Positions 1,591 through 41,073 of a stretch of DNA of 41,073 nt are shown here, piece by piece (the stretch's first letter is position 1; each line of letters begins with the position of its first letter). The position numbers were made by a program, and so were the translations under genes. Source of the stretch: a virus. Its lineage: Duplodnaviria > Heunggongvirae > Uroviricota > Caudoviricetes. The DNA lies in the IMG/VR virus record IMGVR_UViG_2537561979_000009, positions 1-41,073 of that record; one strand, given 5' to 3'. Below the pieces are notes generated by a model, which saw nothing but the letters and a program-made list of their open reading frames with translations, was not told the origin of the DNA and made no database searches.

Positions 1591-1850
1591 CAGATCCCCC
1601 TTATCATGACCAGCACGGGTCTTAACCAGCTTGTGTTGGCATAGTGCACTGTCCAGCCGGATACACTGGCACTGGTATGACTTCCCTGACCGTTAATCAG
1701 AATGGCCGGTGAACAGACTTCCAGACGCCAGCCCTGCAAAGGAGTATAAGAACGCTGCCCCGTCCCTTCAGTGATCACATCCAGCACCCCTGTTGGGTTT
1801 ATTTCATGTGTCACAAGGCGCCCTTTGCGCCATACCCGGACTCCGAACAT
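1590..1850 (-). CDS. Hypothetical protein, 86 aa, start overlapping the J stop
   Basis: Start overlaps J stop and its stop overlaps the next ORF start; not recognised. Confidence 0.45.
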   Translation of the reverse strand: MFGVRVWRKGRLVTHEINPTGVLDVITEGTGQRSYTPLQGWRLEVCSPAILINGQGSHTSASVSGWTVHYANTSWLRPVLVMIRGI

Positions 1851-4800
1851 TACAGTCTCCCCAGTCGTACTCTTAACACATTGTTATCGTCATATACGTC
1901 GATTCGCTCGCCATTGAAAAACAGGCGGCCTGCGCCGGGCCTTCCTGAGTTAATTTCAAGGCTGCCGTTTCTTGATAAACGCCACCCCGGACTACCGGAA
2001 TGAAAATTATCTGACCGGATATCTCCCGTCACTCTGGCAAAATCCACGGTCAGTTTTTTCATGAAAACATCATTCATGAACAGCTGATCACCCTGAGCCA
2101 CAAACAAAGGTGTTGTATTGCCATTTTCCGGGTTAATCATCGCAATACGATCTGCCTGCATCAGGATCTGACTCTGAATTCCGTCAGACGTATTTTCGAT
2201 TCCGGCACCAATACCTGCAATATAGAGACGTCCATCCCGTGTCTGCTGCAGCTTCACAGCCCACATGCTGTTCAGGTTCCGGCGCGTGTCCTCCTGAACT
2301 TTCTGTATCTGCTCAATGCTGGCATTCCAGGATCCCAGTTTTTTATCCGTGCTCTGTTTGATCTGACTTCCCTTATCATCAACATACTGTCTGATCTGCG
2401 CTATCTGTCGGCTGTTCTCCTCCGTGCTCCTGCTTACTGTCTGCCGGATTTCGCTTCCCATCCTGTCAACTTTTCTGTCAACTTCCGCAATGGCCATTGA
2501 CTGTTCAGCGCTCTTTTTCGCCACAACAGTACTTATTTGCGCACTTTTATCATCAACATACTGCCTGACCTGCGCTATCTGTCGGCTGTTCTCCTCCGTG
2601 CTCCTGCTCACTGTCTGCCGGATTTCACTGCTCACGCTGTCAACTTTCCTGTCGACTTTCGCAATGGCCAGCGACTGTTCACCGCTCTTTTTCGCCACCA
2701 GTTCCGTTATGCTGTTTTCAGACGCCGTGATTTTTTTCGTCACCCCGGCGATATCACGCTCCGCACGCTGCCTCACATCTTTCTCCAGCTGCGTCATTTC
2801 GCGGTTAATCTCATTCTCCAGTTGCTCAACTTCAGTGCGCCGTGCAGAGGCATCAATGCGTTCATTGATCTCCCGTCCCAGATGCGTTTTATTTATCGCC
2901 CCCCTGAAAAAATTAAGGTAAGCGGCAGGATCATTACTCGGTTGACCGACTGCCTCCACGAATGCCGATTTACCGACAGTGTTAACACTGCGGATATAAA
3001 AGTAATAATCATGACCAGGCTTAATATTCTGGCCGGAGACAAGCCACTGAGTTCCGGTACCAAGATAACGGGCTGTGGTTTCAACCTGCCTGATATCGGT
3101 AATCCGCTTTTCCGAAAACCAGAACTCAAACTGTACCGTCGGATCATAAACGGCAAGATGCGGCGTGGCGGTTATCTGAAAATAGCCCGGCGTCAGCTCA
3201 ATCCGCGACGGCGCTGCCGGTGCGGCAATCCGGAACGATACCGACGCCGGGTCTCCCTGCTGCCCCCGGGCATTTACTGCCCGGACTGTCAGCCTGTAGT
3301 TCCCCGGTGCCAGCTGCCTGAAGCGGTATGTGGTTTCCGTCGTCCGGGCCGTGCTGACCAGCCGCTCACTGCCGTCATCCGCTGCCACGGTCAGGCGAAG
3401 CATGAAACTCACGCCTTTCACCACCTTCGGCGTGTCCCAGCGGGCCAGTACCTGATACTCCCCGCTGTCTGCGGTGACTTCGACAGTCAGGTGCTGCACT
3501 GCTGGCGGCGTGACACCATTCACCGTGCCGCTCTGGTCACCGTCAAAGTGTGCCCCGTTATCCACGATGCCCTCTTTTTCCGGTACATGCTGCACGGCAG
3601 TGATGGCATACGTGCCGTCGTCGTTCTCACGGATACTCACGCAGCGGAACAGGCGCTGGCGCAGCGTCGGCAGCTTCAGCCCCCACACGCTGTACTCGGC
3701 AACGCCGTCAGGAACCCGGCTCACTTTTACCTTCACGCCGTCGGTGACGGACTGAACCTCCACGCTGACCGGATTGCCACTTCCGTCAACCAGACTTATC
3801 AGCGTGGTACCGGAGGATGGCAGCGTGATTTCACGGTCGAGCGTCAGCGTCCGGGTCTGGCTGTTCACCGCCAGCACACGACCACCGGTGCTGATACCGG
3901 CATAGTCATCATCACAGATTTCAATGACATCGCCCGGTACATGGCGAAGCCCTTCAGCACCCACGCTGAAATCCACGGTCTGCGTCTCCAGCAGTTCTGT
4001 TTTAATCAGCCACAGCCCGGCGCGGTGTGCCTGCCCCCGGCTGGTACAGCCAAAGGCATCCATCTTCGTGACGTTACGACCGTAACGGGCAATGGCCTGC
4101 GTGTCCTCCACAAGCTCTGTCGCCGTCTCCTGGCCGTTATCCGGGTCACTCCAGTTCACCTCAACGGCATTATGGCGGTCCTTCAGGGCGCTGAAGCTGT
4201 AGCGGAACGGCGCGCCATCATCCGGCATCACCACATTACTGCGGTTATAGGTCCACACCTTATCCGACGGCCGGTCCTGCACGAACGTCAGCGTCTGCCC
4301 GTTCCATACCGGCATACAGCGCATCGCCGAGCAGAAATCACTGAGCACATCCCACGCCTTGCGCTGTGTGGTCAGCCAGGCATTACAGGTGATGCGCGGC
4401 TCCGTGCCACCAGAGCCGTCCGGCACCGACTGGTCGCAGTACTGGCCGATAACATACAGCGCCCATTTGTCCACATCCGCTGCGCCAACACGTTTCCCCA
4501 TGCCGTAGCGCGGGTGGGTCAGCATATCCCACAGACACCAGGCCGGGTTATCGCTGTATGCCGGTTTAAACGTTCCGTCCCAGATACCGCTGTATTGCCG
4601 CGTCTGCGGGTTATAGTTCGACGGCACCTGCAGAATGCGCCCGCGAAAATGATAATTACGGCTCACCTGCTGGCTGCCGAACTGCTCCGAATCCACCTGC
4701 ACACCGACCAGTGCCGTGTTCGGGTAGCACTGTTTCACATCGATGATTTCGGTGTATGACGACCAGAGCGTTTTGTTCTGCAGCTGGTCTGTGGTGCTGT

Positions 4801-5359
4801 CCGGCGTCATCCTGCGCATCCGGATACTGAACGGGCGCGGAGGCAGGTTACCCACCACCACCGAGGCCAGATACTGCGAGGTGGTTTTGCCCTTAATGGT
4901 GATGTCTTTTTCCGTCACCCAGCCACCGTTACGCTGTATCTGAACCAGCAGGCGGACTTCCGACGGATTCCGGTCCCCCTTTGAGGTGGTTTCCACCAGT
5001 GCCTGCACACCGAAGGTCAGGCGCAGACGGTCGATGTTTGCCGACGTGATGGTCCGGGTAATCGGCGTGTCGTACTTCACTTCCGTACCCAGCACCGTCT
5101 CGGAGCCGGAGGATTCAAATCCCTCCGGCGGCGTCTGCTCCTGCTCACCTGACCGGAACACCACCGTGACGCCGGATATATTGGTATTCCCCTCACTGTC
5201 CAGCACCGGCGTACCGTTCAGCAGCACGCTTTTTAATCCATCCACCGGTCCTTGTATCGGCCCTTCGCTGATGACATCGATCACACTCAGCAACTGCGTG
5301 GACTTCAGGTTGTCCTTCGCTTCGCGCGGGGTATGCCCCTTACTGCTGCCTTTACCCAT
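1850..5359 (-). CDS. J: Tail tip host specificity protein J, 1169 aa, with a non-lambda C-terminal region
   Basis: N-terminus [24 protein letters not shown] and most of the length match lambda J as I recall it; the last ~300 aa diverge and contain an internal duplication. Confidence 0.93.
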
Positions 5360-5419: not shown

Positions 5420-6067
5420 TCAGCGACCAATCACCACAACCCGGACGCCATCCCCCTCATCCGCTGTGCTGATCTCCTGCGAAATTACCAGTGACCCCAC
5501 GCGCATTTCACCGTACAGAACGGGCAGAGCATTCCCCTGGGCAACCATGTTTTCCAGTGAGGAGAAATAGGTGTTCTGTTTGCCGTTATCCGTGGCTGAT
5601 ACTCCGGGCATTCTGGCTTTCGGTGCCAGCATCTGCGCCACACCACCGAGCACCATACTGGCCCCTGCCGCATACATGCCCGATAAAGCCGCAGCCCCCA
5701 GCCAGCCTGCAGGGTTCCACCATGCCACCGCAATCAGCGCCGCGCCCAGCACTGCCTGAAACACACCACCACGTTTGGCTCCCGCCAGACGCGGCACGAT
5801 GTGGATCACGGCACCATTTGCCAGCGGTTCATTAAGACGGGCTGATAATTCGTTTTCGCCTGTATCACGCCCGGCAATACGCACCTGATACCAGCCGTCG
5901 CTCAGTTTCTGACGAAACGCCGGGAGCTGCGTGGCCAGCGCCCGGATGGCTTCGGCTCCCGTTTTCACACGAAGGTCGATGCGGCGGCCAAATCGTTGCA
6001 AATCCCCGTAAAGGCAGATGCGTGCCATGCCCGGTGACGCCAGAGGGAGTGTGTGCGTCGCTGCCAT
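5420..6067 (-). CDS. I: Tail tip assembly protein I
   Basis: 215-aa ORF in the lambda I position; overlaps K by 103 nt, the same overlap I recall for lambda K/I. Confidence 0.9.
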   Translation of the reverse strand: MAATHTLPLASPGMARICLYGDLQRFGRRIDLRVKTGAEAIRALATQLPAFRQKLSDGWYQVRIAGRDTGENELSARLNEPLANGAVIHIVPRLAGAKRGGVFQAVLGAALIAVAWWNPAGWLGAAALSGMYAAGASMVLGGVAQMLAPKARMPGVSATDNGKQNTYFSSLENMVAQGNALPVLYGEMRVGSLVISQEISTADEGDGVRVVVIGR

Positions 6068-22917: not shown

Positions 22918-23045
22918 GGATATTTATCAGGATTTATCGGTTCCGAATCCCTGGATATGTTAAATCTTCAGCCCGCCAGCGGTAGGACACTGGCGTTTTT
23001 CCTGATGGCTGAAATATATCTGACAATTTCAGTAGAGGATTAACC

Positions 23046-23360
23046 ATGCATAACGATCAACATAATTATGATTTATGCCTGCAAGCCATAAATGAGCGGG
23101 TAAAATCAGAGTGCCTCTTACTCCTCCCACAAGAACACGATGCAGTAAAATCCATTCAGGCTGAGCCGTATGGACATCTCACACCTGTGACTCTCGGCAT
23201 TATCGCCAGAGCATTAACACAGCCCATGCTTATGCGTATTAAGACCAATATAAATAACTGGTTGAATGAAGAATTAAGCTACCTTGATTGTGAGTGGGAC
23301 AATCATTACGCAAAAACACAAAAAGAACGCATCTTCAGTCGATTATCCAGCAACAGATAA
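23046..23360 (+). CDS. Hypothetical protein, 104 aa, antisense to the lysis operon
   Basis: GAGGAT Shine-Dalgarno 8 nt before ATG; convergent with the 268-aa ORF, ends 10 nt apart; not recognised. Confidence 0.55.
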   Translation: MHNDQHNYDLCLQAINERVKSECLLLLPQEHDAVKSIQAEPYGHLTPVTLGIIARALTQPMLMRIKTNINNWLNEELSYLDCEWDNHYAKTQKERIFSRLSSNR

Positions 23361-23369
23361 CGAGCCACC

Positions 23370-24176
23370 TTATATACGCCCTTTCAGATAAGTCATCCCC
23401 GGCTGCATCCAGTCAACAGGTGCTTTCTTAAAGGGCGTATTATCAAAATCACGCAGAAGAGCCTCCAGCACAACTGCATCATTGTCAGCACCACTGGCCA
23501 TCATTTCAATCTCAGCTGCTACCTGCAGATATCCCATGCAACGACCAATGCGCTTCATCAGCCCCTGCTTTTTATTGTTCTTCAGGTAATCAATGGCAAA
23601 TTCAATGAGCGCCTCACTATGCTGGTGCGATGGCGGTGTTAATTTCCCATTTTCTGAGATGGTTATTTTCCCGCCATCTCCGTATACAACAAAGGATGGC
23701 CGGTTACACTCCCATTCCTGATCTTTATCAGGTGCAGACGCAATAAAATAACGTTTATTTCCTTCCTCTCCGGCACTTTTAACCGTAATGGAGTACTCAG
23801 ACTGCAGACAAGACGCCTCTTTTTCTGACCGCAGTGTTGACGGCGGCATCTTCAGAGAACCAGTAATTCTTCCCGGTAGCTTTCCTTTGTAGGTTATCCA
23901 CACATTCTGCGCCTCTAAAATTATGGGGCGCTTTTCCGGCGACAGCTCATCCCCTTCACATAACCCGGCAGCAACATCCAGGAAGACCTGTCTGATGCTC
24001 CTTCTGGCTGCTGCCTCATAAAACTCCAGCGCGGCACCTTCAACACGGTCCAGCGAGATGTCCAGGTCAAAAATTTCACCGTCAAAGCGTTTTTTGTCCC
24101 GTAACGCTACAGTTACCGTAACTTTATTCTCAAAATTGCGGATCCCTTTCACAATCAGTTCATAGTTTTGAGTCAT
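23370..24176 (-). CDS. Hypothetical protein, 268 aa, inserted between holin and endolysin
   Basis: Start 4 nt after the holin stop, same strand as the lysis genes; no recognisable motif. Confidence 0.6.
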   Translation of the reverse strand: MTQNYELIVKGIRNFENKVTVTVALRDKKRFDGEIFDLDISLDRVEGAALEFYEAAARRSIRQVFLDVAAGLCEGDELSPEKRPIILEAQNVWITYKGKLPGRITGSLKMPPSTLRSEKEASCLQSEYSITVKSAGEEGNKRYFIASAPDKDQEWECNRPSFVVYGDGGKITISENGKLTPPSHQHSEALIEFAIDYLKNNKKQGLMKRIGRCMGYLQVAAEIEMMASGADNDAVVLEALLRDFDNTPFKKAPVDWMQPGMTYLKGRI

Positions 24177-24180
24177 TGAA

Positions 24181-24396
24181 TTACTCTCCCCGTGCAGCCT
24201 TGCGACGGTCCTCTTTTATCTTGAAGTACAGATTCGTCAGATAAGTCAGAAAGCCCAGTGCCAGACTCCCCAGCACACCAATAGCAGCCCACTGTGAAGG
24301 ACTGACCTGATCAATCCACTGCAAAAACCAGTACCCGGCACTACCTGCTGAGGTGCCATAGGCAACACCCGTTGTTAACTTATCCATGGATTTCAT
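24181..24396 (-). CDS. S: Class II holin (pinholin, S21-like) with dual start motif
   Basis: 71 aa, MKSMDK... with Met1 and Met4, two TM segments, charged C-terminus; GGAGG Shine-Dalgarno. Confidence 0.85.
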
Positions 24397-24726
24397 AGCA
24401 ACGCCTCCGCCAGTAACGGATTGCGTAGTTCTTGTATTAGGAAGGGGAAAAAGAAGGCCGCAGCATAATTGTCACTGATGAATTCACGACAGCCAGTGGC
24501 TACGGCTCGGTTTGGGTTGTGGTGGCTGGCGCAGGTCTCCGGCTTGCGGTTATTTCAGACTCTCACGGGCGTTTAATTGCCCCGCCGGACAGATCTTTTC
24601 CGCAATAGCTGCAATGTCTTTCGCGCATCAGCCTGAGCATTCACCACAACGATAAGAGCACTGCGCGGCACCTTTCACCAGTTCCGCGAGGTCTGCGGGT
24701 TCAGTGCTCTTACCTGTTGTGCAGAC

Positions 24727-24749
24727 AAAAAAAACCGCACGGCGGCGGG
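24727..24749 (-). terminator. tR'-like terminator of the late leader RNA (short GC hairpin plus U8 on the minus strand)
   Basis: Minus strand CCGCCGCCGUGCGG then UUUUUUUU, followed by GTCTGCACAACAGGTAAGAGCA..., which matches the lambda sequence just downstream of tR' as I recall it. Confidence 0.6.
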
Positions 24750-25200
24750 TTTAAGTTGTGTGGCGTAGGAACCACTCTTACCATGATATGCATACTTTTA
24801 CGATCGTAAAGTGTTTGTTCATACCCTGCATGCTGCATGATTCACCCCACAGACAATCTCTGGATTGTTGCGACGTTTGGCAAGATACAATTAAAGATTA
24901 TGCATTCATCTATGCACGTATTTTTCTTCAAAAGTAATGTCTTTATTAAGGTTATATAAATAACTCATAAACCCAAATAATTAAATATATTTAGCACTTC
25001 TAATAAAAAAGATTGATCTTAATTTTCTGAGTGAAAGATAGCCATCTATTTATTAGTTTGCATGACTTCTTATTTTGTGATAGTGGTCACATATAAAGAA
25101 TCGGACTCCTTAATTTTCCTTGTATACATTATACACAGAAATTAAATTTTCATCCTGATAGCATTTTGTCGTCCAATTAACTCCCACCAGAGGATAAAAA

Positions 25201-26307
25201 ATGAAAAATTTAACAGTGGCACTTTCTGCTGTAGCAGCATCAGTATTTCTGGCAACGTCTTCAAATGCAGCAGAAATATACAATAAAGATGCAAACAAAG
25301 TGGATTTATACGGTAAAGCAGTTGGTTTACATTATTTTTCTTCTGATAAGGACCAAAACGGAGATCAGACTTACGCACGCCTTGGATTCAGAGGTGAAAC
25401 CCAAATAAATAATTATATTACTGGTTTTGGTCAGTGGGAATATAATTTCCAGGGGAACAACCCTGAAGGGGATGGAGCTCAAACTGGAAACAAGACTCGC
25501 CTGGCATACGCTGGTCTGAAGCTTGCAGATGCTGGCTCTCTTGATTATGGTCGTAACTACGGCGTGGTGTACGACGCATTAAGCTACACTGACGTCTTCC
25601 CGGAGTTTGGACCTACCGCAGCGCAAGACGATAACTTCTTCGTTGGTCGTGTAGGCGGTGTTGCCACATACCGCAACACTGACTTTTTTGGACTGGTCGA
25701 TGGGCTTAGCTTTGCAATTCAGTATCTGGGAAAAAATGAACGCAAGGATAAACCAGATACTTCAAACGGAGAGGGTGTAGGTGGCTCTGTCAGCTATGAA
25801 TATGAAGGATTTGGTTTTGTCGCAGCATACGGCGCTGCTGATCGTACTAAAAATCAGAAAAAGGCTGAGCTTGGTAAAGGGAAAAAAGCTGAACAGTGGG
25901 CCACCGGGGTAAAATATGACGCAAATAATCTGTACCTGGCTGCCAGTTATGGTGAAACAAATAATACCCGTGCAATATCGTATGGTGATAATATTTCAGG
26001 AGTGGCGAATAAAACCGAAGATTTCACTGTTGTGGCACAATACCAGTTCGACTTTGGATTACGCCCGTCTCTTGCTTATACCCACTCTAAAGCAAAAAAC
26101 CTTTCATCCAGTACTGATATTAGTAAAAAACATGATGACGGATATATTGAAAAATTCGTTGAAGTCGGGGCTTCTTATTACTTCAACAAAAATATGTCTA
26201 CATACATAGATTACAAAATCAATATGCTCGATAAAAATAAATTCACTGAAAGAACAGGAGTATCAACCGACGATATTGTCGCTGTTGGTCTGGTTTATCA
26301 GTTCTGA
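25201..26307 (+). CDS. Outer membrane porin, OmpC/OmpF/PhoE family (prophage Lc/NmpC-like lysogenic conversion porin)
   Basis: 368 aa, signal peptide, ends in the beta-barrel motif ...VGLVYQF; AT-rich upstream region. Confidence 0.85.
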
Positions 26308-26451
26308 TTTGTTCTGTAAGAATATGCCGGGGGAGTGAGAACTTTTCTGGCATATAAAGTGGTGCCCTCATGCCACTGCAAAACGTTGGACAGTACTTAA
26401 CTTTTCCAACGAACTTTCTGTTATTTATTAACCTTTTTGGTTTTTATGCTT

Positions 26452-26478
26452 GGGCGCTTTGCGCCCATTTTTTATTTT
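26452..26478 (+). terminator. Rho-independent terminator (GGGCGC-TTT-GCGCCC then ATTTTTTATTTT)
   Basis: Perfect 6-bp GC stem and T-run on the plus strand, about 145 nt after the porin stop and just outside the Q 3' end. Confidence 0.7.
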
Positions 26479-26485
26479 GTACGCC

Positions 26486-26923
26486 TTATATCCCTGCCCT
26501 GGAGGACGCAGTTTTACGACGTATCGAATAATTTGTGCTCACATATCGATCCATCTCAAGGCGAACATCCAGCATCATCAACATGCCATCGATAACTCCT
26601 TCCGCTTTCTGCAGGCGCTTACCAACGCAAGTATCCGAACATCCATGTTTCCTTGCTAACTTCATGAACGTAATCCCATATACGTAGTAATCAACCAGCA
26701 TGTCATGCATATCGGCGTTGTTCTTTTTCAGGCGAGCCATACAACCACATATAATCATCGCGTCATCATCGGAACACTGCGATCGCGATTTTACTTTTGA
26801 CGGTATCAGCCCCTTAAATCCGGCGGCAATGCCTGACCATTCCACGTCTTCATGATTATTTGCGACCCATGCCCCCCAACGTTCAAGAACCATTTGAATA
26901 TCACGCATCAACTTTCTCCACAA
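26486..26923 (-). CDS. Q: Late gene antiterminator Q (QuuD/phage 21-type family)
   Basis: Cys-rich ~140-aa protein ([14 protein letters not shown]... [11 protein letters not shown]) between the nin-like region and lysis genes; alternative starts at Met6 and Met11. Confidence 0.65.
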
Positions 26924-26925
26924 AA

Positions 26926-27921
26926 TCAGGCCAGCACACCAGTTGCCAGCGCACGATCGATAAAACGAAATATCAGCTCCAGCTGGGAGCCATACTTCAC
27001 TTCAAATGCCACGGTATCCGCATGCAGCTCGTCGTGATGCTTTCTGCACAAAGGCAACACAAAGAGATCATGCGCTTTTTTACCCATTCCCCCCTGACCG
27101 TGGCCTATCAGATGGTGGGGATCATCAGCAGGCTTTCCACAACATGCACACGGCTGCGTCTTAACCCAGCGCGTGTACTTTTCATTAACCCAGCGGCGAC
27201 GTTTTGGGCGTAACATAAAAGACTCCGGCGACTCCGGATCCACTTTCAGCGCCAGCACCTTTTTCGCTTTATCCTGGATGATGCTGGTGGCAGGAACCGA
27301 AGGCACAAGGTCACTTTCCCGGGTGACAGATGGCACAACAGGCTTCGGTAATCTCAGTGCCTTACGGGCTGCACTTTCCGGTAAGGCATCCGCCAGATCA
27401 TTACGAACCAGCCACCAGCACAGTTCCGGCATTGTCACAACGTGACTGTCATCAAAACCGAGATCCCGACGCACGACAGACAACACCCAGCGGGCACAGT
27501 TATCCGTTGCCATTGATTCCAGCCGTTCCGTGAACTGATCGCGCAGCTGGTTATCGCAGTGCCAGCACAGACGGATTGCGCCCGGCGCGTGTCGCATTGT
27601 TGTCATGTTCTCGCTGTGCCAGTCGGAATGAGGCCACTGGCAGCCTTTTTCACGAAGTAACCAGCTTTCAAGACATTCCACGCCACCAGCACGACGGATC
27701 ACTGCCTCATTGCGGAACACGGCCCGAACGGCAGGATCATCCGCCAGCGGTTGTGATGCCGCCGGAACGGCACCACTGGCGAAAGATGAATAACGTTCCG
27801 GCTCAGGCTCCAGCAGGACACGCCCCTGCATAAACAGGGGCATCAGCTCTGAACCTGGCCTGAACAATACGATCCCCATACGCGGGGCAATTTCAGGGGT
27901 CAGTAGTGCTCTCACGGTCAC
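26926..27921 (-). CDS. DUF968-like prophage protein (YdfU-like), 331 aa
   Basis: C-terminal [21 protein letters not shown] ... [10 protein letters not shown] Cys/His cluster; position immediately upstream of Q. Confidence 0.45.
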
Positions 27922-27922
27922 C

Positions 27923-28750
27923 TCAATGAACGGTATCGAGCAGCTTTAACAGCTCAGGGAATCGGGATTCGAAGAAATGCGGCTGCGTCTCGCGCGGATT
28001 TGCGGGACTGGTGATGTTCTTGCCGAACATGCAACCTTTCGCTGTCAGCGACCAGAATTTTTTGATGTTGTTAATCGCGGTACGGCTGTATCGTTCGCGT
28101 TGTTCAACGATCCCCAGCTTCGCCATCTGGTGATATGCCTGATTAGCCGTAAGGCGGATACCATACTGTTTCAGCAGTGCACTCAGCGACAGCGTAGGGC
28201 GGCTTGAACCATCTGGCGCATCAGCAGGTGCATCAATGGCATAGATCGGCATAAGTTCAGGAAGACCAGCTACCTTTGATAATTTCTGGTATGCACCAAG
28301 TTTCGAGGAGTTTGACAGATTTAGAGTCTTTGCTGCTGATTCAAGCAGAATGACCCCGGATTTAATTTTGTCGGATGTGGTTTCTTCTGGTGATGAATTA
28401 TGAAGCGCATCAAAAGTACGTATCACTTTTAAGCTGAATGCCGGGCTGATCCACATTGCATATGCATAGACCAGCTCTTTACAGACATACGTCCCACCAT
28501 TGCGCCCCTGAATGGTGATGACAGGAATACTACGGGAATCTCCCGTAGTTTCTTCTTCCAATAATTCCACAAGAGCCTTCGTTTCAGGACGACGCATAAA
28601 CTCGTGAACTTCCAGCGAACGGGAGGAGCGATTCTCACCAGCGGCAAGAAGAGCAGCTTTCTGAAGGTCGTTAAGACAGTAGTTAGATTCGAAGTACTGG
28701 CGCACAGAAACGCCATCAATTACAAGCAACTGATTCATTGGTTTCTCCAC
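27923..28750 (-). CDS. KilA-N domain-like protein (putative antirepressor/Roi-like), 275 aa
   Basis: N-terminal region resembles KilA-N DNA-binding domains; assignment tentative. Confidence 0.4.
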   Translation of the reverse strand: MEKPMNQLLVIDGVSVRQYFESNYCLNDLQKAALLAAGENRSSRSLEVHEFMRRPETKALVELLEEETTGDSRSIPVITIQGRNGGTYVCKELVYAYAMWISPAFSLKVIRTFDALHNSSPEETTSDKIKSGVILLESAAKTLNLSNSSKLGAYQKLSKVAGLPELMPIYAIDAPADAPDGSSRPTLSLSALLKQYGIRLTANQAYHQMAKLGIVEQRERYSRTAINNIKKFWSLTAKGCMFGKNITSPANPRETQPHFFESRFPELLKLLDTVH

Positions 28751-33857: not shown

Positions 33858-34550
33858 ATGAACATAGGAAACCGAGTCAGACAACTTCGCCAGGCGAAGA
33901 ACATGAAAATCGCCGATCTCGCTGAAGCAATAGGAGTGGATGCGGCGAATATCTCACGCCTGGAAACAGGTAAGCAGAAACAATTCACTGAACAAGCCCT
34001 GAGTAATATTGCCAGGAGCTTAGGTGTTGATATTGCTGATCTCTTTACCTCAGACTTCAAAAGTAATACTGTATGTAAAAACAGTATTAGTGAGGATGTT
34101 GCGCAGGTGAAGGATGTATTCCGTATTGAAATGCTGGATGTCAGTGCCAGTGCGGGAAATGGCCTTATCCAGGGCGGTGATGTCATTGATGTGATTCATG
34201 CCATTGAATACAGAACTGATAATGCTGTATCGATGTTTGGCGGACGGCCAGCCAATCACATTAAAGTTATCAACGTTCGTGGGGACAGTATGTGTCCAAC
34301 CATTGAACCAGGAGATCTCATCTTCGTTGATGTCAGTATCAATCAGTTTGATGGAGATGGTATCTATGTATTTGGTTTTGATGATAAAATTTATGTCAAA
34401 CGACTGCAAATGATACCTGACAAACTACTGGTGATTTCTGATAACCAGATTTACCGTGAATGGGGAATTACCAGCGAAAATGAACACCGGTTTATGGTCT
34501 TTGGAAAGGTCTTAATCAGCCAGTCACAAACCCTTAAGCGACACAATTAA
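33858..34550 (+). CDS. cI: CI repressor: N-terminal HTH plus C-terminal S24 (LexA-like) autoproteolytic domain
   Basis: 230 aa; HTH (MKIADLAEAIGVDAANISRLETGKQ), C-terminal GDSM serine and KR lysine motifs. Confidence 0.85.
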   Translation: MNIGNRVRQLRQAKNMKIADLAEAIGVDAANISRLETGKQKQFTEQALSNIARSLGVDIADLFTSDFKSNTVCKNSISEDVAQVKDVFRIEMLDVSASAGNGLIQGGDVIDVIHAIEYRTDNAVSMFGGRPANHIKVINVRGDSMCPTIEPGDLIFVDVSINQFDGDGIYVFGFDDKIYVKRLQMIPDKLLVISDNQIYREWGITSENEHRFMVFGKVLISQSQTLKRHN

Positions 34551-39837: not shown

Positions 39838-41073
39838 CTACGCAAACTGTCCGTTGGAGATTAAGTCAGTACAAGTAACGATCGATTCAACCCTCTCCCA
39901 CCATGCCCAGTAAGCTTTACGCTGTTCTTCTAGATAATCGCTCTTATCATAAACTTGCCATACACCTGGCAGTTTATGACCGAGCATTATTTCAGCAATA
40001 TGAGGAGCAGTAAGATCAGAAAAGTTTGTTCGTGCTGTTCGTCTCAAATCATGAAGAGACCAATGAGGAAATTGATACCCCAAACGTCGCCATGCGAACT
40101 GCATTAAATTGTAAGGCAGCGACTGCAATGATGTCCGACCAACTGGCTCCCTGCTTCCTTCCTTAGTAAAAAGCATATCGGAACCGTTGTTCATAGAGAT
40201 AACGTATTTTATAAGCTCTTCAACCGGTTCAATAATGGGCCGCTTTAGCGGTTCGCCTGTTATGTCCCCAGTCTTATGTCGTTCTGGTGGTACAGTCCAT
40301 ACCTTATTTATGAAATCAAAATCATCCACCCTAGCAGTAATTAGCTCTGAACTACGGCAACCAAAATGCAGCAATAGTTTAATGAAGGCTCGGTATTTAG
40401 GAACCATTCGAGAACCATCGATCGCAGCATAAAGGATGTTAATTTCATCATGTGTCAGAAACCGTTTTTTCTGACCTTTACGGATATCCATATCTTTACC
40501 CGTGATATCCGACAGTGGGCGAGTTTCAATGAGCTTTCTCTTATACGCCCAGACATGGGCCTGCTTTGCGTTAATTAGCAATCGGTCTACTATTGCTGGA
40601 GTCTTGGTGCTAAGAGGCTCCAGGACTTCTAACCAATCATGCAATGTAGCTGCATCGTGAGGGATATTCCCGATTTTAGAGAACAGGTGCAGCTCAAACG
40701 AGCGGAGTATCTGTTCAGAACCTTTTTTATTTTTTACACAATATGCTTCATACCAGGCACGGATCACAGACTCTACCGTCATGGCTTCAGTAGCTTTTCG
40801 TTTTTCAGCCTGCTTGACTAATCGTGGATTGCGGTTTGACTCGAGTTCACCACGGAGACGGATAACTTCTTCTCTGGCCTCTTTTAATCCAGTTGCCGGG
40901 TAAGTTCCGATATCAAGGCGCTCACCTTTCCCTGCCCATTGATAACGATATTGGAACACTACGCGACCTTTCGGTGATACTCTGACAGACAGACCATCAC
41001 GATCGGATTTAACCAAAACCTTATCACGTTCCTTTCCAACGACTGAACGCAACCACGCATCAGACAGCGCCAT
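39838..41073 (-). CDS. int: Tyrosine integrase, P4-type with DUF4102-like N-terminus
   Basis: 411 aa; N-terminal ...LSVRVSPKGRVVFQYRYQWAGK arm-binding-like region and C-terminal R...HDLRRT...LGH...Y catalytic motifs; ATG occupies the last three bases of the window. Confidence 0.85.
   Translation of the reverse strand: MALSDAWLRSVVGKERDKVLVKSDRDGLSVRVSPKGRVVFQYRYQWAGKGERLDIGTYPATGLKEAREEVIRLRGELESNRNPRLVKQAEKRKATEAMTVESVIRAWYEAYCVKNKKGSEQILRSFELHLFSKIGNIPHDAATLHDWLEVLEPLSTKTPAIVDRLLINAKQAHVWAYKRKLIETRPLSDITGKDMDIRKGQKKRFLTHDEINILYAAIDGSRMVPKYRAFIKLLLHFGCRSSELITARVDDFDFINKVWTVPPERHKTGDITGEPLKRPIIEPVEELIKYVISMNNGSDMLFTKEGSREPVGRTSLQSLPYNLMQFAWRRLGYQFPHWSLHDLRRTARTNFSDLTAPHIAEIMLGHKLPGVWQVYDKSDYLEEQRKAYWAWWERVESIVTCTDLISNGQFA

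Follow-up and report, generated by a model that had tools for sequence, protein, structure and literature searches.

The window (the whole stretch of 41,073 nucleotides analysed here, IMG/VR record IMGVR_UViG_2537561979_000009) represents a lambda-like prophage of E. coli, with integrase, repressor, terminase and tail genes, and carries an intact porin gene for which sequence comparison gives statistical support to a mosaic of OmpF-type and Lc-type segments. The cassette that contains this gene is probably a lysogenic-conversion module of the porin-replacement type, the kind known from Lc and NmpC, in which the mosaic porin is new and the 3' untranslated region (3'UTR) would lower host OmpF and OmpC. 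The features of the locus, in order of position, are:

24181-24396, minus strand: holin of class II (S21 type), which opens the lysis cassette (PF04971, E 5.5e-35)
24726-24810, minus strand: candidate late leader (pR'/tR'-like), with the promoter-like site TTTACG-16-TATCAT at 24810-24783 and a terminator stem at 24746-24734 followed by T8
24811-25200, plus strand: upstream regulatory region, 390 bp, AT-rich, 31% GC
25076-25091, no strand assigned: perfect CRP core TGTGA-N6-TCACA, 110-125 nt upstream of the porin ATG
25201-26307, plus strand: porin coding sequence (CDS) from the list of open reading frames, 368 aa, mature protein about 345 aa, stop codon TGA at 26305-26307
25201-25269, plus strand: signal peptide, 23 codons, cleavage after SNA with AEIYNK next, placed by alignment with the OmpF and Lc cleavage sites
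25263-26163, plus strand: OmpF-type core, CDS nt 63-963, codons about 22-321, constriction loop L3 included
26164-26304, plus strand: Lc/NmpC-type C-terminal segment with the last strands, L8 and the terminal Phe
26308-26478, plus strand: structured 3'UTR, diverged homologue of the nmpC/lc 3' region (IpeX) by alignment with DLP12 and PA-2
26387-26406, plus strand: hairpin-3 segment, complementary to ompC codons 1-7 (+2..+22) in runs of 11 and 8 nt with one bulge
26412-26445, plus strand: block between the hairpins and the terminator, predicted to be single-stranded
26451-26478, plus strand: intrinsic terminator, TGGGCGC-TTT-GCGCCCA followed by T6AT4, stem at 26451-26467, found by scan and direct reading
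26486-26908, minus strand: antiterminator Q (Q21 family, QuuD-like; PF06530, E 4e-53), probable start ATG at 26908

The porin gene and its slot in the prophage

The porin gene is intact: its reading frame runs uninterrupted from an ATG preceded by the Shine-Dalgarno sequence GAGGA (25190-25194), and re-inspection for a frameshift or premature stop found neither. The product matches the Pfam family Porin_1 (PF00267) over the entire profile (positions 1-337 of 337; 418.6 bits against a cut-off of 23.7; E 2.9e-125), which makes it a member of the enterobacterial general trimeric porins (the OmpF/OmpC/PhoE superfamily). Its best sequence match in PDB is E. coli OmpF (E 1e-150), with the alignment extending from the signal peptide through the last residue, and the AlphaFold model (pLDDT 72.7) comprises 16 strands and has OmpF (2zfg) as its top Foldseek match (TM 0.85/0.92); taken with the residue alignment, the model predicts a 16-strand barrel with a charged constriction. 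Alignment also indicates a Sec signal peptide, and the C-terminus reads ...VYQF, ending in the aromatic residue Phe. In these respects the first-pass annotation, which described a complete plus-strand porin gene with a signal peptide and a terminal Phe, was correct.

The assignment of the gene in that annotation to an 'OmpC/PhoE family' stands only at the level of the superfamily. Protein alignment yields identities of about 70% to OmpF, 63% to Lc, 59% to OmpC and 55% to PhoE, so that in this comparison OmpF, not OmpC or PhoE, is the nearest named relative and the porin is neither OmpC- or PhoE-like nor an Lc orthologue. At the same time, the scores against the NCBIfam models of OmpF (NF007446, 540.3 bits with a cut-off of 583), OmpC (NF007841, 460.5 with a cut-off of 484) and PhoE (NF007544, 417.6 with a cut-off of 599) all fall short. 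The label 'phosphoporin PhoE', which the gene carries in databases, is unsupported given the latter score and the presence of Gly at the position aligned with K125 of PhoE (FMTKR in PhoE, FFVGR in the porin), the lysine in L3 that confers anion selectivity.

Inserted between Q and the late leader, which lies upstream of the holin gene, the porin gene runs antiparallel to Q and the holin, both on the minus strand. Lc of phage PA-2 and NmpC of the cryptic prophage DLP12 occupy the same slot in the same orientation, antiparallel between Q and holin, and the flanks are homologous: Q is 79% identical to QuuD of DLP12 at the protein level (and 32% identical to Q of phage 21), the holin DNA is 80-82% identical to that of PA-2 and DLP12, and the late-leader segment is 79% identical to the same position in both, all of which identifies a cassette of the Lc/NmpC type. 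PA-2 lysogeny reportedly leads to the production of Lc and to a lowering of OmpC. Given the promoter-like site and the terminator between porin and holin, together with the 79% identity to PA-2 and DLP12, the placement of the late leader is plausible. Its architecture matches the annotated pR'/terminator of phage 21; we infer that the candidate acts as pR'/tR'. The position of the porin between Q (26486-26908) and the late leader (24810-24726), as initially annotated, is thus borne out; its orientation, initially described as opposite to all flanking genes, is indeed opposite to Q and the holin, but a 104-aa open reading frame nearby (23046-23360) also lies on the plus strand.

In strain TUM1886, the block from holin to Q is 98.8% identical to that in the window, the similarity ends at the start of Q and the replication genes upstream of the block are different, which indicates that the block moves between phage backbones. 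In the relative in GF60, two tRNAs separate the porin from the lysis genes; ARAGORN found no tRNAs in the window, and PADLOC found no defence systems in the neighbouring unknown open reading frames. The logic of superinfection exclusion is known for PA-2. In the present prophage, the C-terminal 350 aa of J have no close relative among sequenced phages (the best match, at 45%, does not cover the tip) and are unlike the receptor-binding ends of lambda J and A8 gpJ in PDB, so that no phage receptor can be proposed.

Mosaic structure, pore and surface loops

Within CDS nt 63-963, 136 of the 213 informative sites are OmpF-like, compared with 7 of 50 outside this interval; in the two-breakpoint maximum chi-square test, none of 200 permutations reached the observed value. 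Toward the 5' end, the signal peptide is 70% identical to that of Lc versus 29% for OmpF, and the DNA of the first 30 codons is 83% identical to lc versus 57% for ompF. Residues 24-260 are 51-66% identical to Lc and 71-81% identical to OmpF, and the relationship is reversed for residues 321-368, with 81% identity to Lc versus 69% to OmpF; the DNA of the C-terminal segment is likewise 75-80% identical to lc versus 63-68% to ompF. Given the overall identity of 63% and the significant mosaic test, the porin is not a whole-length orthologue of Lc/NmpC (OmpD type), two proteins that share 99% identity; its residues about 22-321 are of the OmpF type. By these comparisons, the frame of the cassette, namely the late-leader flank, the signal peptide, the C-terminus, the 3'UTR and the terminator, is of the Lc/NmpC type, and the barrel with the constriction loop is of the OmpF type. 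The mosaic shows that phage-borne porin genes recombine with ompF-type genes.

A second allele of the porin, in GF60, has 80% amino acid identity to the first, and its mosaic breakpoints are different (nt 259-817). Synonymous sites are saturated between the porin gene and K-12 ompF, and the closest chromosomal OmpF proteins reach no more than 65-69% identity to the porin, so that no donor species can be named for the OmpF-like core; a search of representatives of 185,579 species found no closer OmpF (best 67%).

The alignment shows that the porin retains the residues that make the OmpF-type general-diffusion trimeric pore. The pore residues K16, R42, K80, R82, R132, D113 and E117 are conserved, as is the pair E71/R100 of the L2 trimer latch (all in OmpF numbering), and the PEFGG motif reads PEFGP. 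Compared with OmpF, the barrel and the turns are 82% identical, L3 is 75% identical and the surface loops are 43% identical. Judging from the alignments, several surface loops among L1 and L4-L8 have been remodelled or are unique: relative to OmpF, L1 lacks 5 aa, L7 has a 7-aa insertion, L8 also contains indels, and L6-L7 resemble neither OmpF-type nor Lc/NmpC-type loops. Further differences from OmpF are found at the tip of L3 (GGDTAYSDD in OmpF, GPTAAQDDN in the porin) and at R167/R168, which are replaced by D/T. The gene has been under purifying selection, with a dN/dS of 0.17 between the two alleles (0.12 in the barrel, 0.28 in the loops), and near-identical alleles show a charge-changing polymorphism at the L3 tip, which suggests that the pore is exposed to selection.

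Upstream region and predicted expression

The 390 bp upstream of the gene are specific to this cassette: they bear no relation to the corresponding region of lc/nmpC and show no detectable similarity to the upstream DNA of ompF, ompC, lc, phoE or ompN, so that control by OmpR cannot be argued from homology. Among complete E. coli genomes, the region is confined to the same five that carry the porin; between alleles that diverge by 14% in coding sequence, it is conserved at 97-99%. The CRP core is the only perfect match in the 41-kb window, with 0.05 expected by chance; the alleles of TUM1886 and GF60 have it as well, and the other loci compared lack it. No sigma-70 promoter on the plus strand of this region passed the consensus scan, and a promoter proper to the gene is therefore something we infer; a relaxed scan returned weak candidates, of which the best, TTTGCA-16-GATAGT (25057-25084), overlaps the CRP site. 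Of the 'own AT-rich promoter' in the first-pass annotation, the AT-rich region is thus present and the consensus promoter was not found. In one genome, an IS5-family element is inserted in the upstream region; such insertions can activate or inactivate silent genes.

The predicted duplex of MicF with the 5' region of the porin mRNA has an energy of -11.3 kcal/mol (z -0.3), compared with -27.4 kcal/mol (z -4.9) for ompF, and by this measure the porin gene is without a MicF target. It differs from ompF not only in its location, in a prophage between Q and holin rather than at the chromosomal asnS-ompF-aspC locus, but also in having neither the MicF-targeted leader nor similarity to the OmpR-controlled ompF promoter. 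For the protein, E. coli OmpF is the best match in sequence and fold.

The most serious alternative to a conversion module that is active in the lysogen, although a rather unlikely one, is that the gene is quiescent cargo, intact but normally silenced by H-NS or for want of an activator, and at most a reserve porin comparable to nmpC and ompN. DNA of 31% GC is of the kind silenced by H-NS, and the failure of the consensus scan, the overlap of the best relaxed candidate with the CRP site and the IS5-family insertion would all fit a silent gene. Against it speak the purifying selection, the charge-changing polymorphism at the L3 tip, the CRP core, which is perfect and conserved between alleles, the strong conservation of the upstream region and the structure of the 3'UTR. 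Related porin genes have been called quiescent, to judge by the title of Prilipov et al. (1998), as given in PMC3333887, which applies the term to nmpC (of E. coli B) and ompN.

The 3'UTR and the proposed porin replacement

The 3'UTR lies between the porin stop codon and the terminator, the same place as IpeX, and is homologous to the DLP12 and PA-2 sequences. It is laid out as three hairpins, an A/U-rich single-stranded block and the terminator, folds better than any of 200 shuffled sequences (z -4.1), and has a consensus structure in which 8 pairs persist although both partners have changed. This 3'UTR and IpeX have hairpins 1 and 2 in common, where the changes are compensatory, and the 5' 25 nt of the single-stranded block (26412-26436), at 88% identity to DLP12-type 3'UTRs, are the most conserved stretch between the two types. 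The overall identity, in contrast, is about 60%, the terminator differs, and hairpin 3 is replaced by the sequence complementary to ompC +2..+22. An Rfam scan of positions 23000-28000 at E <= 1 gave no match, so that neither the 3'UTR nor the late leader belongs to a curated family. The terminator with which the gene had been credited is present, as the plus-strand stem and T-run after the gene, and is unidirectional because the opposite strand has no U-run.

Both versions of the 3'UTR are complementary to the start regions of ompC and ompF. For ompC, the 11- and 8-nt runs pair with +4..+21, the reverse complement of the 3'UTR scores 33 against ompC -44..+21 (shuffled sequences 18.7 +/- 2.8, none of 300 reaching this score), and the predicted hybrid energy is -23.3 kcal/mol. 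For ompF, the single-stranded block contains TTATTTATTA (26421-26430), a 10-nt complement of ompF -9..+1, which is the MicF target; the GF60 allele has a 12-nt run, TTATTTATTACC, identical to MicF. Raw hybrid energies are better than those of all 60 shuffled sequences for both ompC and ompF but not for the mRNA of the cassette itself, the start of which has no comparable complementarity to the 3'UTR. The energies come from windowed prediction, with opening energies used for an accessibility correction that is a crude approximation; duplexes predicted over the full length of the 3'UTR and the mRNAs spanned whole molecules and carried no meaning, and the windowed procedure took their place. After the correction, the 3'UTR pairs with ompF at -10.7 kcal/mol (reached by 1 of 60 shuffles), which equals the MicF-ompF control computed by the same method (-10.5 kcal/mol), and with ompC at -7.6 kcal/mol, which is not significant for the allele in the window (10 of 60 shuffles). 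The target regions are at least 99% identical to those of K-12 in 5366 (ompC) and 5397 (ompF) of 5426 E. coli genomes. On the basis of predicted pairing, the 3'UTR looks able to silence host porins. It would use the same bases as MicF against the Shine-Dalgarno sequence and AUG of ompF, but shows no overall homology to micF and no Rfam match, and is part of a prophage mRNA, unlike micF, which stands as a gene of its own beside ompC.

The literature counts IpeX among the post-transcriptional repressors of OmpC and OmpF (PMC7177473, PMC3617542), and a review states that it acts without base-pairing (PMC3617542). The latter statement does not fit the complementarity measured in the 3'UTR. A preprint on a prophage sRNA (PMC12247714) concerns LamB and is not relevant here.

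It is a still less likely possibility that the cassette is additive only, that is, that it supplies an extra OmpF-like channel with a 3'UTR that is a mere terminator region and leaves the host porins unrepressed. The insignificant corrected energy for ompC would be expected in this case, as would the denial of base-pairing by IpeX in the review (PMC3617542), and since the porin genes compared here are visibly recombination-prone, the complementarity to ompC could be a relic of an old recombination with the 5' end of ompC. A mere terminator region would, however, leave several observations unaccounted for: the block complementary to ompF and ompC is the part best conserved between two diverged 3'UTR types, it falls in the predicted single-stranded stretch that leads from the hairpins to the terminator, the GF60 allele shares a 12-mer with MicF, the mRNA of the cassette lacks comparable complementarity, and IpeX is reported to lower both OmpC and OmpF (PMC7177473). 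That the gene is instead a host chromosomal ompF, or a decayed pseudogene like K-12 nmpC, has a negligible probability and was rejected, for although OmpF is the best-scoring named family, the gene sits between phage Q and holin in a prophage with integrase, repressor, terminase and tail genes, scores 540 bits where OmpF requires 583, is saturated at synonymous sites relative to K-12 ompF, is flanked on both sides by DNA unrelated to the ompF locus and has an intact reading frame.

Under the preferred reading, porin replacement in the lysogen, transcription of the porin gene would depend on CRP and start from a promoter within the AT-rich region upstream of it, the mRNA would escape MicF because the MicF target is absent, and the protein, once exported, would assemble into an OmpF-like pore whose outer face is different. 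The 3'UTR, as a homologue of IpeX, would pair with the ribosome-binding regions of host ompF and ompC and lower their translation, so that the phage porin would take the place of the host porins instead of supplementing them. As a result, solute uptake would be preserved, recognition by porin-dependent phages, colicins and antibodies would be altered, and drug permeability might change as well. The promoter, expression in the lysogen and the change in phage or colicin sensitivity are argued here from the analogy with Lc, the divergence of the loops and the predicted anti-ompC/ompF activity of the 3'UTR.

Small hydrophilic antibiotics enter mainly through porins, which also serve many phages and colicins as receptors. 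Such a cassette could change the phage and colicin susceptibility, antigenicity and drug permeability of E. coli in one step, and the predicted pairing of the 3'UTR provides, for IpeX-type RNAs, the mechanism of which has so far been left open, a base-pairing model that is concrete and can be tested. More tentatively, and as a possibility rather than an expectation, the cassette might be a portable device for porin exchange that combines a loop-exchanged OmpF-like pore, a CRP promoter that ignores OmpR and MicF, and a dual antisense 3'UTR resembling MicF and MicC. If so, IpeX-type RNAs would work by base-pairing, against the review literature, and lambdoid phages would shuffle segments of host ompF-type and phage lc-type genes, as the different breakpoints in different alleles also suggest, giving rise to new porin surfaces where phages, colicins, the immune system or antibiotics exert pressure.

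With respect to distribution, all 42 phage GenBank records with a porin are at 60% identity or less to the porin described here, and among the best 80 of 405 porin-bearing contigs in IMG/VR, two have a porin of this type. The other 78 of these best matches are about 60-61% identical, and all 77 of them that could be checked have 3'UTRs of the DLP12 type. The gene is rare, being carried by 5 of 5426 complete E. coli genomes; the exact protein is encoded on 449 contigs, all from E. coli. Altogether, the gene occurs in more than a thousand assemblies under the names 'porin' or 'phosphoporin PhoE', which are uninformative or wrong, and the strains that carry it are mostly poultry isolates.

Setting of the porin gene in the prophage

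The window is a lambdoid prophage with an integrase, an S24-type repressor, Rha/Ash and DnaD-like replication genes, DUF968, KilA-N and RusA, together with Q, holin, SAR-type lysozyme, Rz, terminase and lambda-like J. The anatomy of the porin cassette and its surroundings is as follows (window coordinates).

23046-23360 (+), 104-aa ORF (phrog_1853), between holin S and endolysin R
23370-24176 (-), 268-aa ORF with an N-terminal DUF1327 domain (phrog_1085), between holin S and endolysin R
24181-24396 (-), holin, S21 type
24746-24726 (-), GC-rich hairpin followed by T8, about 30 nt after the late promoter-like site
24810-24783 (-), late promoter-like site TTTACG-16-TATCAT, between porin and holin
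25076-25091, perfect CRP core TGTGATAGTGGTCACA, the only one in the window (0.05 expected)
25201-26307 (+), porin, 368 codons, the one long ORF of the region
26451-26478, terminator TGGGCGC-TTT-GCGCCCA plus T-run, at the end of the porin 3'UTR
26486-26908 (-), Q, Q21 family (PF06530)
33858-34550, S24-type repressor
39838-41073, integrase

The porin gene is antiparallel to both Q and the holin gene, as the first-pass annotation had described. Q is 79% identical to QuuD of the cryptic prophage DLP12 and 32% identical to phage 21 Q. The late promoter-like site and its hairpin are arranged like the pR'/terminator unit annotated in phage 21, and the late-leader segment shares 79% identity with its counterparts in PA-2 and DLP12. 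Given that a promoter scan found no minus-strand promoter between Q and the porin gene, the gene appears, from its sequence, to lie between Q and the late promoter, in agreement with its original placement. The same slot is occupied in both reference elements: nmpC is antiparallel between quuD and essD in DLP12, lc is antiparallel and adjoins the lysis genes in PA-2, and the window holin, late leader, porin gene and 3' flank all align with both.

E. coli TUM1886 has the holin-to-Q block at 98.8% identity, but there the similarity stops exactly at the start of Q and a different helicase/toprim replication module lies beyond; this block is therefore a mobile module common to different lambdoid backbones. 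The gap between holin S and SAR endolysin R (22918-24180) holds the two extra ORFs listed, on which PADLOC gave no hits; in TUM1886, the lysozyme directly abuts the holin, without these ORFs. Between tR' and the holin, some 150 nt (24512-24665) match DNA at unrelated positions in other phages at 90-94% identity (among them P1-like phages, near plp; mEp460, adjoining the repressor; Stx phages). Rfam gave no match to this stretch, its fold is unremarkable and its ORFs are all tiny; it may represent a small element that is mobile or recombinogenic. In the relative from strain GF60, genes for tRNA-Lys and tRNA-Ile separate the porin from the lysis genes (positions 5721-5874 of its locus, L002); no tRNA genes were found anywhere in the window. 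The J tail-tip protein (1850-5359, -) is lambda-like throughout its central domains; its receptor-binding end shows no resemblance to lambda J (a LamB binder) or A8 gpJ (an OmpC binder), and its nearest phage relative is 45% identical, with the tip not covered.

A mosaic porin with an OmpF-like core

Re-inspection of the porin ORF found no frameshift or premature stop, so the first-pass description of a complete gene with a signal peptide and terminal Phe stands. The Shine-Dalgarno sequence GAGGA lies six bases upstream of the ATG, the Pfam profile for enterobacterial porins, PF00267, is matched over its full length (418.6 bits, positions 1-337 of 337), and the product aligns with solved OmpF chains without a break, signal peptide and terminal Phe included (C-terminus VYQF), with the junction between the 23 N-terminal residues and AEIYNK at the known OmpF and Lc cleavage sites. 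The AlphaFold model, built with 45 homologues as input, has 16 strands (mean pLDDT 72.7) and superimposes on OmpF 2zfg with TM 0.85/0.92.

The OmpC/PhoE-family label initially given to this gene does not hold: the protein is 70% identical to K-12 OmpF, 63% to Lc and NmpC, 59% to OmpC and 55% each to PhoE and OmpN. Among the NCBIfam models OmpF ranks first, and the score is below the cut-off for OmpF (540 vs 583 bits), OmpC (460 vs 484) and PhoE (418 vs 599). Alignment to PA-2 Lc, to which the first-pass annotation had also pointed, does not identify the gene as Lc either, given the OmpF-like core; the porin is an Lc/OmpF mosaic.

Segment-wise protein identity of the porin
Residues 1-23 (signal peptide): 70% to Lc, 29% to OmpF
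Residues 24-260: 51-66% to Lc, 71-81% to OmpF
Residues 261-320 (L6, L7): at most 62% to anything
Residues 321-368: 81% to Lc, 69% to OmpF

The DNA shows the same segment-wise pattern, and GC content tracks it, with AT-rich gene ends and a core of about 50% GC. A two-breakpoint maximum chi-square test on the sites that discriminate ompF from lc delimited an OmpF-like tract at CDS nt 63-963 (OmpF-like sites 136/213 inside, 7/50 outside), a value reached in none of 200 permutations. The GF60 allele (80% aa and 86% nt identity) has a different tract, nt 259-817 (115/152 inside, 28/123 outside), so exchange between lc-type and ompF-type genes has taken place more than once. Synonymous sites are saturated relative to K-12 ompF, and across representatives of 185,579 species no OmpF is more than 67% identical to the porin.

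When regions are defined by the strands of the model, the barrel with its turns is 82% identical to OmpF, L3 is 75% identical and the seven surface loops are 43% identical, with a 5-residue deletion in L1 and insertions of 7 and 4 residues in L7 and L8. In OmpF numbering, the basic ladder (K16, R42, R82, R132), the acidic L3 residues D113 and E117, the latch pair E71/R100 and K80, which is Trp in OmpC, are all conserved. The L3 tip differs (GGDTAYSDD in OmpF, GPTAAQDDN in the porin, with Pro and Thr in place of G120 and D121), as do R167/R168, which are Asp/Thr. Anion selectivity of PhoE is set by K125, which aligns with Gly here. The protein is best read as a general-diffusion pore of the OmpF kind whose outer face differs.

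The gene evolved under constraint (dN/dS against the GF60 allele 0.17 overall, 0.12 in the barrel, 0.28 in the loops). Residue 143 at the L3 tip (25627-25629) is D, K or G among alleles otherwise about 99% identical, a charge-changing polymorphism within the pore. All five amino acid differences from the TUM1886 porin fall in strand 1, L1, L3 or L4, and none of the six nucleotide changes in the mature part is synonymous, which hints at selection on pore charge, with counts too small for a test.

Upstream region, 3'UTR and predicted pairing

The late leader and the porin ATG are separated by 390 bp (31% GC) in which no similarity was detected to the DNA upstream of ompF, ompC, lc, phoE or ompN, and which occur only together with this porin gene. 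In two alleles with coding regions that differ by 14%, this segment is 97-99% conserved. The CRP core is conserved in both alleles, and CRP sites are annotated upstream of lc in the PA-2 record as well. Of the AT-rich promoter and terminator originally proposed, the AT-rich region and the terminator are present, but a consensus scan found no plus-strand promoter for the porin; a relaxed scan gave weak candidates, and under a class II arrangement transcription would start near 25124. The 5' region contains no MicF target (-11.3 kcal/mol, z -0.3, compared with -27.4 kcal/mol, z -4.9, for ompF). One chicken isolate (NZ_CP033635.1) carries the IS5-family element ISKpn26 just before the CRP site, at the equivalent of window position ~25056, which recalls the disruption of K-12 nmpC by IS5.

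The 171 nt downstream of the stop codon are predicted to form three hairpins, a single-stranded A/U-rich stretch and the terminator (fold z-score -4.1). The nmpC/lc 3' region, to which Castillo-Keller et al. reportedly mapped ipeX in 2006, is a diverged homologue: hairpins 1 and 2 are common to both, kept via compensatory changes, as is a single-stranded block with 88% identity over 25 nt.

The reverse complement of the window 3'UTR aligns with K-12 ompC from -44 to +21 (score 33 vs 18.7 +/- 2.8 in shuffles; reached in 0/300). Exact complementary runs comprise 11 nt (+11..+21) and 8 nt (+4..+11) near the ompC start and 11 nt (-50..-40) and 9 nt (-10..-2) in the leader. The 10-nt run TTATTTATTA is complementary to ompF -9..+1, and its GF60 equivalent is the same 12-mer that MicF uses. 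Interaction energies were estimated by our own approximation, which combines windowed duplex prediction with opening energies.

Predicted interaction energies (kcal/mol; shuffles reaching the value)
MicF with ompF (control): -10.5
Window 3'UTR with ompF: -10.7 (1/60)
Window 3'UTR with ompC: -7.6 (10/60)
GF60 3'UTR with ompC: -12.1 (1/60)
Window 3'UTR with its own mRNA: -2.9 (39/60)

In raw hybrid energy, ompC and ompF are better than all 60 shuffles, whereas the cassette's own mRNA is not. In 5366 (ompC) and 5397 (ompF) of 5426 complete E. coli genomes, the targeted regions match those of K-12 at 99% identity or more.

Complementarity to the ompC leader is strong in the classical IpeX region of DLP12 too, with an alignment score of 32 (17.9 +/- 2.6 in shuffles); by the same approximation, this region yields -9.8 kcal/mol with ompC (-22..-6) and -10.0 with ompF. 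Within the DLP12 nmpC 3' region (locus L004, 1868-2029, -), AAACCTTCTGTTATATATTACCCTTTATTT pairs with ompC -32..-6 at a hybrid energy of -26.1 kcal/mol. IpeX is listed as repressing OmpC as well as OmpF (PMC7177473); the predicted pairing does not fit the statement in a review that IpeX acts without base-pairing (PMC3617542).

Mechanistically, porin replacement is most likely: a gene under CRP control and blind to MicF would make an OmpF-type pore with new surface loops, and the 3'UTR coupled to it is predicted to repress host ompF and ompC. The anatomy is read directly from the DNA; we infer porin expression, host-porin repression and the phenotype. The lysogenic-conversion porin module originally proposed stands in kind, as one of the Lc/NmpC sort, but not in detail, the gene being an OmpF-like mosaic rather than OmpC/PhoE or Lc.

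Distribution

Of 5426 complete E. coli genomes, 5 carry the cassette (four at ~99%, one at 86%), and chicken or chicken meat was the source of four of these. A DNA search found no cassette in GenBank phage records; the porins in phage records are all of the Lc/NmpC/OmpD type (42/42) and at most 60% identical. A porin relative is encoded on 405 IMG/VR viral contigs; the best 80 comprise one identical, one GF60-type and 78 that are ~60-61% identical, and the DLP12-type 3'UTR is present in all 77 checkable contigs of these 78. No paper describing this porin was found in the literature; another uncharacterised extra porin was noted in the 2010 genome paper on EAEC 042 (PMC2808357), a strain absent from the DNA hits for the cassette. 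Another E. coli prophage porin (P0100, 371 aa, named 'OmpC'), 61% identical to the window porin and with an Lc-like signal peptide, occupies a different slot, within the tail gene cluster between minor tail proteins M and L (4001-5116 in each of the loci L014-L016). The exact window protein is found on 449 contigs and close variants on hundreds more, all E. coli, under the database names 'porin', 'phosphoporin PhoE' and 'outer membrane protein 1a'.
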